A stretch of 64,000 bases of DNA. It comes from an uncultured Chlamydiales bacterium (GTDB lineage: Bacteria > Chlamydiota > Chlamydiia > Chlamydiales > JAAKFR01). The first letter of the stretch is position 1, and every line of letters begins with the position of its first letter. The notes under the pieces are model-generated. The model ran no database searches and was not told where the DNA came from. It saw only the letters and a program-made list of their open reading frames with translations. The position numbers and the translations under genes are program-made. Positions 58,882 through 59,598 of this stretch are shown piece after piece. Where the stretch lies: positions 103 to 64,102 of the forward strand of contig CAVPKN010000043.1 in the NCBI GenBank assembly GCA_963705695.1, given 5' to 3'.

Positions 58882-59598
58882 CTATTTTTGATTCACAAGA
58901 AATTGGTCGTCCAAATAATCTTTTAGCATGTTCCATGCATTAGAGATCGCATCTTCGACGAGCCTAGGATCGGCATGAACCAGTTCTGGATTGAGTTCAT
59001 ATCCCGTGGCACCCATATCATAATACTCGTAGAAGAGGAGGGTGCTCTTTTGAGCATCTCCTTGAATCCTAATAATACGTGAATCTTTGCTTTCCGTCGC
59101 CAGTCGAAGGAGATAAAGAGTATCACCAATGGAAACTTTAAAATTTTGAGATTCCCATTGTTTTCCGTTGTGCTGAGGCAGCGGGAGGCTTCGATTTATT
59201 ACGATGCTTTCAATCTGCGCGGAATCCCCTCTCCAAATGGGCAGTCTTTCGATCTTCTTGCAGATCTCAGATCCTAAATGTGTTCCCAAAGCGAGCTTTG
59301 AATAGATTAATTTTTCATACTCTTTTTTCTCTTGATAGGCGCCACGGACAGTGACTCGAGTGATCGGTGAAGTAAATTGAAAGGAGAAGCTGAAGGCTAT
59401 CGCCTCCCAAATTGAATTTTTTTCTGAGATAAACGCATGAAAGCTATGACTAGACACGGAAAAATTTAATAGGCTTCTTAAATCGACCATTTGAAGTATT
59501 TTCTCATGGATTTCGGGAGGCAATCTGTAAATGGAAGTCTCAATATGTGTCGAAGGATCTAAGAAGGGAGGCTGAGCTGTGAAGGGGACAACGTTCAT
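58882..59598 (-). CDS. F-box domain protein (eukaryote-like)
   Basis: The start is set at MNVVPF (59598), 8 nt after AAGGAG. Residues ~20-60, IYRLPPEIHEKILQMVDLRSLLNFSVSSHSFHAFISEKNSIW, fit the F-box consensus LPdEil..Il..Ld..dLl....VSk.w..l......lW. Confidence 0.75.
   Translation of the reverse strand: MNVVPFTAQPPFLDPSTHIETSIYRLPPEIHEKILQMVDLRSLLNFSVSSHSFHAFISEKNSIWEAIAFSFSFQFTSPITRVTVRGAYQEKKEYEKLIYSKLALGTHLGSEICKKIERLPIWRGDSAQIESIVINRSLPLPQHNGKQWESQNFKVSIGDTLYLLRLATESKDSRIIRIQGDAQKSTLLFYEYYDMGATGYELNPELVHADPRLVEDAISNAWNMLKDYLDDQFLVNQK

Follow-up and report, generated by a model that had tools for sequence, protein, structure and literature searches.

A 238-residue protein encoded in a 64-kb stretch of DNA (the whole stretch analysed, referred to below as the window) carries at residues 24-69 what is, judged by its sequence, a genuine eukaryote-type F-box. 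The domain is followed by a C-terminal region of about 170 residues that is known from six metagenomic sequences and is fused to an F-box in each of them. The source organism is an environmental chlamydia. By analogy with known systems, the protein is probably a secreted effector mimicking a eukaryotic F-box protein, which would be exported by the type III machinery, dock onto host SKP1, and recruit a target. The features on which this reading draws are listed in Table 1.

Table 1. Location of the F-box gene, its parts, and the adjoining repeat (window numbering)
Feature	Position	Strand	Description	Basis
F-box gene	58882..59598	-	complete, including the stop codon; 238 aa	open reading frame list and full-length alignment with five homologues
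Shine-Dalgarno-like AAGGAG	59607..59612	-	CTCCTT on the plus strand; 8 nt upstream of the ATG at 59598	
N-terminal 23 residues before the F-box, MNVVPFTAQPPFLDPSTHIETSI	59530..59598	-	possible type III secretion signal region	
F-box domain	59392..59529	-	residues 24-69	Pfam and alignment with SKP2, FBXL2, and FBXW8
C-terminal region	58885..59391	-	residues 70-238; family-specific domain, no known relative found	
Short dispersed repeat	58768..58843	.	about 75 nt, in the 287-bp spacer from the F-box gene to ppa	

The gene and its F-box domain

In its longest form, the minus-strand open reading frame comprises 244 codons (58882..59616). Translation is likely to start at the second ATG (59598), giving 238 aa, and not at 59616, because the AAGGAG motif is located 8 nt upstream and because the N-termini of the full-length homologues align at this position. 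The preliminary description had placed the gene at 58882-59598, which corresponds exactly to the 238-aa product; a database protein of the same length (P0001) is identical to it, while a lookup of the exact sequence in assemblies gave no record. The reading frame runs uninterrupted over 238 codons to the C-terminus ...DDQFLVNQK and is intact, translatable, and full-length relative to its homologues. The opposite strand contains short open reading frames only, and a scan for a promoter or a terminator of the gene returned none that was convincing. Contamination with eukaryotic DNA was considered and rejected, as the gene lies between bacterial genes on one contig, is preceded by a Shine-Dalgarno site, and lacks homologues in eukaryotes.

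Membership in the F-box class was assigned to proteins whose HMM score equals or exceeds the curated gathering threshold (PF00646 or PF12937, clan CL0271). The F-box had been proposed earlier from the consensus residues of a single peptide, IYRLPPEIHEKILQMVDLRSLLNFSVSSHSFHAFISEKNSIW (residues 23-64), with the Pfam model suggested as a check. The model bears the proposal out, at a level well beyond chance: PF00646 (F-box) scores 29.4-29.5 bits against a cut-off of 20.5 (residues 24-61, E ~6.5e-07 to 6.7e-07), and PF12937 (F-box-like) scores 25.6-25.7 bits against 24.3 (residues 24-69). PF00646 is also matched in all five family members scanned (reporting threshold E<=10). When a profile of the six-member family was compared with PDB chain sequences, the best eight matches were all F-boxes (E 0.009-0.09). 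They come from the SKP1-bound proteins FBXL2, FBXW8, SKP2, GID2, Cdc4, and FBXW7 and align position for position with the family; the single 238-aa protein gave no match to PDB sequences at E<=10 (phmmer). In a MAFFT alignment, the domain has the Pro, the Glu, the ladder of Leu/Ile hydrophobic residues, and the terminal Trp in common with SKP2, FBXL2, and FBXW8, and its LP-x-E-[IL] motif, hydrophobic spacing, and trailing W can be aligned to the F-boxes of all three. Substitutions in the window copy are conservative: His replaces the Leu that follows LPPEI, and Phe (SHSF) replaces the Trp of helix 3 (VCKRW). The AlphaFold2 model of the region contains helices at residues 28-37, 40-49, and 51-59, as expected of an F-box, but with a pLDDT of only ~50; in a Foldseek search against the PDB, Skp1-Cdc4 ranked second (E 1.2, not significant).

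The moderate score (29 bits), the substitution of some consensus residues, and the low model confidence in this region might also fit an F-box-like helical motif with a purely bacterial function, in a protein that never meets host SKP1. Such a role is quite improbable, since two independent Pfam models score above their curated cut-offs, the F-box signal is common to the family, and the top PDB profile matches are all true F-boxes; moreover, we know of no bacterial partner for an F-box. The carriers are, in addition, obligate intracellular bacteria known for this kind of mimicry (PMC4209131). The domain is therefore regarded here as a eukaryote-type F-box, and we infer that it binds SKP1.

A six-member family and its C-terminal domain

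The family is small. When 1.84 billion cluster representatives were scanned exhaustively with phmmer, only four homologues emerged (E 1e-14 to 1e-05), besides one unrelated repetitive F-box protein; a fifth came from metagenome contigs in a scan guided by the family profile. Among 5.8 billion proteins searched by word index, the single sequence retrieved only itself, while the family profile retrieved two members, both already known. With tblastn, the window protein had no homologue at any of 80 loci anchored on ppa, taken from relatives and from other phyla. Viral contigs scanned with the family profile contained no member, so nothing there points to an origin in giant viruses or phages.

Family members measure 200-265 residues and share 24-45% identity, with the F-box and the ~170-residue C-terminal domain present throughout; the identity of the window protein to its five homologues is 24-27%, covering both halves at full length. 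All five homologues originate from metagenomes, from different samples, and none is functionally annotated: the four from the database are singleton clusters labelled at most 'hypothetical protein'. The C-terminal domain is so far known from these six members, from metagenome assemblies only. The suggestion of an expanded family in the preliminary description is correct for Chlamydiae in general, which have large F-box families (PMC4209131), but does not extend to this family, which has a single copy in the window and six members in total.

Chlamydial marker genes are present on at least two of the six family contigs. The contig L084 is clearly chlamydial, with two Chlam_OMP genes (E 1e-29 and 1e-31), and L083 encodes a FabI of the PRK06300 type, which we take to be the chlamydial/plant-like form. 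The surroundings of the homologues are bacterial, and two of the homologues have further eukaryote-like candidates beside them. On L084, a gene with an OTU cysteine-protease domain adjoins the F-box homologue (L084:7189-8250, 27.7 bits against a cut-off of 23.3), and on L082 the neighbor encodes an LRR protein (L082:1-816). On L083, a 128-kb JGI contig, the family member is situated at the edge of a mobile-type island (L083:3687-9543) containing a HTH_Tnp_4 transposase fragment, a DUF927 protein, and a Zn-ribbon primase protein; this position hints that the F-box gene can travel with mobile DNA.

The C-terminal domain contains 13 positions that are invariant in the six-member alignment (L102, L104, L108, G109, C113, K115, I116, P120, W122, K154, L161, L163, and W222). 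No Pfam or NCBIfam family matches these ~170 residues even at E<=10, in agreement with the earlier reading that LRR, WD40, and kelch repeats are absent, and the profile of the domain has no sequence relatives in the PDB. NCBIfam contains no family for the protein as a whole either. AlphaFold2 was run on the full-length protein and on the C-terminal domain alone, both times with a five-sequence family alignment, and returned models of low confidence (pLDDT 58.8 and 57.4). Both low-confidence runs predict the same topology, in which a helical linker leads into a five-strand antiparallel sheet and then into a long C-terminal helix. Foldseek comparisons of these low-confidence models with the PDB (twice) and BFVD gave nothing significant, with no match below E 0.3 (PDB) or 0.02 (BFVD); the best match, p32/C1QBP, reaches a TM-score of only ~0.2. 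At a pLDDT of ~58, the models support a claim neither to a new fold nor to a known one, and the domain is best treated as unclassified. It is a rather doubtful proposition that the ~170 residues form a previously unseen substrate-recognition fold, which would define a rare new family of chlamydial SCF-hijacking effectors with a new host pathway. If this were true, the pathway would be distinct from those of the known LRR, TPR, and ankyrin F-box effectors.

Chromosomal surroundings

The chlamydial origin of the window is evident from its other genes. The ppa gene is 81% identical to that of the uncultured Chlamydiales chromosome OY969414, and the next eleven best loci are also chlamydial MAGs; FabF is 75-79% identical to five chlamydial relatives and ~70% to three more. 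A fused glycyl-tRNA synthetase gene (glyQS), glgA, and a MqnC-type radical SAM gene, all of which are typical of Chlamydiae, are also present.

Gene order is shared with about seven to eight relatives from a gene for a 564-aa protein through HAD, cytidylyltransferase, fabF, and NUDIX genes to ppa. On the far side of ppa, upstream of it, seven relatives (L001, L002, L003, L006, L007, L010, and L012) have a conserved block encoding proteins of ~365, 325, 895, and 480 aa. No part of this block occurs within the 64-kb window (whose ppa side was followed from 57905-58594 onward), which puts the breakpoint of a rearrangement precisely at ppa. Past this breakpoint the F-box gene comes first, just beyond the conserved ppa end, where the preliminary description had located it, and thus sits in a variable part of the chromosome that has been rearranged.

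A different set of F-box genes is found near ppa in one of the relatives, the chlamydial MAG contig CAZPPS010000014.1 (L006), where three to four tandem open reading frames of ~390-470 aa (3270-8652) are located one gene from ppa. Three of them are paralogous by blastp, one (4543-5886) passes the Pfam F-box cut-off with 24.7 bits, and the others have F-box-like N-termini. Membership of this array in the family of the window protein was rejected, as hhalign aligns the F-box alone (E 0.06) and the C-terminal parts are unrelated. The array shows the ppa neighborhood to be variable and of effector type, agrees with the birth-and-death evolution described for F-box genes in chlamydiae, and suggests that such genes land recurrently in the flank of ppa.

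A repeat had been noticed on the 3' side of the F-box gene, and the segment in question (Table 1) indeed recurs twice elsewhere in the window: at 29978-30049 (89% over 76 nt) and, as a reverse complement, at 23378-23431 (94% over 54 nt). Comparison of the window with itself reveals 14 pairs of dispersed repeats (36-195 nt, 71-100% identity), many of them apparently outside long open reading frames. The sites are 4618-4700, 17637-17888, 23300-23487, 24596-24827, 29917-30098, 34907-36693, 45472-46073, 48814-48891, 49982-50170, 57255-57357, and 58768-58843; one of them is located just upstream of the NUDIX gene.

On the 5' side, where a decayed efflux gene had been described, an OEP/NodT-type efflux lipoprotein gene is indeed broken into at least three fragments (59657-61087, minus strand): two OEP-positive fragments and one with the N-terminal lipoprotein signal. 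Next to it, kdpA is frameshifted (61233 to ~62900) and kdpB is fragmented (from ~63183). Together these genes form a 4.4-kb run close to the end of the contig (59657-64000) and look like young pseudogenes, with their full-length footprints kept.

Damaged genes occur elsewhere in the window as well. The mutS gene (4792-7258) is divided into two open reading frames in different frames, encoding domains I-II (4792-5553) and III-V (5558-7258); the junction, just past a CTCTCTCTC run, is either a real frameshift or an assembly indel. The murC gene (42139-43260) is apparently frameshifted at least twice, and restoring one base at ~43196 (CGCTA-ACGCGG) recovers the conserved reading ...FQPHRYTRTRDL...; this gene looks essential and yet is broken, either by assembly indel errors or by genuine decay. 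Because mutS, murC, and other genes are also split, some of the apparent decay in the window may consist of assembly indels, which do not affect the intact F-box reading frame. A penicillin-amidase fragment (34152-34793, profile positions 451-610 of 675) and a truncated Tn5/IS4-type transposase (49071-49961, DDE and dimerisation domains) likewise point to gene decay and to the activity of mobile elements. Two large open reading frames, 26045-27391 (448 aa) and 27543-29174 (543 aa), are intact and match no Pfam family at E<=1e-5.

With pseudogenes on one side of the F-box gene, relaxed selection is possible, and the gene itself might be a decaying remnant that is no longer under selection, on its way out of an effector family with birth-and-death turnover and situated in a degrading region. 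It adjoins the broken OEP, kdpA, and kdpB genes, its G+C content (0.418) is a little lower than that of the window (0.459), and the copy is the most divergent of the six, lacking five residues of an otherwise conserved FNSxFxxNS segment; birth-and-death turnover has, in addition, been reported for chlamydial F-box genes (PMC4209131). This explanation is very unlikely, however, as the 238 codons are uninterrupted and full-length in comparison with the homologues, the ribosome-binding site is kept, and none of the residues invariant in the six-member alignment has been lost.

Proposed action and known F-box effectors

Chlamydiae use type III secretion, and in the proposed mechanism of an F-box mimic, the unstructured first ~23 residues would carry the signal for it. 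This leader has a pLDDT below 50 in the model. The protein contains neither a signal peptide nor a membrane segment (maximum Kyte-Doolittle 19-residue mean 0.95), which is compatible with type III export and action in the cytosol. A secretion role of the leader is possible by analogy with reporter assays, in which large ubiquitination-related gene families of Chlamydiae were positive in a heterologous type III system with their first 20 codons (PMC4209131). Once in the host cytosol, the three-helix F-box (24-69) would dock onto host SKP1 and so enter a SKP1-cullin-RING ligase. The helical linker and the ~170-residue C-terminal domain, predicted to be alpha/beta, would then bind either a host protein or a bacterial protein secreted alongside, and deliver it for ubiquitination.

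The protein might, on the other hand, titrate host SKP1 or stabilise targets as a decoy or inhibitor that delivers no substrate, the C-terminal domain serving localisation or stability. A size of only 238 aa would suit such a role, as would a C-terminal domain unlike the LRR, WD40, kelch, ankyrin, and TPR modules (Pfam) and a weak PRANC-like Pfam match (E 0.05), PRANC being a viral F-box variant. The 13 invariant C-terminal positions in six members nevertheless argue for a specific partner and not for a passive tail, and those F-box effectors of bacteria that have been characterised, AnkB among them, modulate the ubiquitination of defined targets; a decoy is thus quite unlikely. Recruitment of a substrate by the C-terminal domain remains the preferred reading.

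Chlamydiae encode more than 370 F-box proteins, and their genes undergo birth-and-death turnover (Domman et al. 2014, PMC4209131). The closest systems by phylum are the Neochlamydia families NEX1a, which combines the F-box with LRRs, and NEX2, which combines it with TPRs, DUF294, and sometimes OTU (PMC4209131). Like the window protein, they are presumed type III effectors acting on host SCF ligases, and the window gene likewise lies in a variable region. The window protein, in contrast, is much shorter and without LRR, TPR, or DUF294, none of which was found by Pfam in the five family members scanned (E<=10); it therefore belongs to neither NEX1a nor NEX2, but only to the broader F-box superfamily. 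No lineage-specific multi-copy expansion was found either, with one copy in the 64-kb window, homologues from different samples, and six members known.

Outside the phylum, AnkB of Legionella pneumophila (Lpp2082/LegAU13) is an effector with an N-terminal F-box that redirects ubiquitination, from a bacterium with an amoeba-associated intracellular lifestyle that is also seen in chlamydiae. It differs from the window protein in its ankyrin repeats, its CaaX box (in some strains), and its type IV export; the window protein has no ankyrin match (Pfam) and no CaaX. VirF of Agrobacterium tumefaciens is an F-box protein of ~200 aa with a non-repeat C-terminal part, translocated for SCF-dependent degradation. 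It resembles the window protein in being small and in having, besides the F-box, a tail of no repeat class, but it is secreted by a type IV system and acts in a plant host. VirF-like proteins are absent from the six hits at E<=0.001 in the exhaustive 1.84-billion search, and no sequence similarity to VirF was detected. Direct binding of host Skp1 has been reported for AnkB (PMC7542358).

Among eukaryotic proteins, FBXO3 and SKIP16 combine the F-box with a SUKH domain (PMC3113570). In these proteins, the F-box is followed by a compact alpha+beta domain and not by repeats, of which the topology predicted for the window protein is loosely reminiscent. No SMI1_KNR4/SUKH match was obtained with Pfam in the members scanned, even at E<=10, and SUKH structures do not appear among the Foldseek matches, a negative that is weak given the low-confidence model.

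F-box mimicry is already established for amoeba-associated bacteria, and the window gene is mainly one more example: it represents a small, new family in a familiar class of effectors that mimic the host, useful for cataloguing and no surprise to the specialist. The phenomenon now reaches an uncultured lineage of chlamydiae beyond the well-studied Parachlamydiaceae. The synteny breakpoint at ppa, together with the different F-box array nearby in L006, illustrates effector turnover at particular chromosomal spots. The mildly new part is the partner domain, which is compact, non-repeat, and found only with an F-box in a handful of environmental sequences. If this domain binds a specific host protein, it would reveal a new host target of chlamydial ubiquitin hijacking, and the 238-residue protein would then provide a small, tractable F-box adaptor for structural work.
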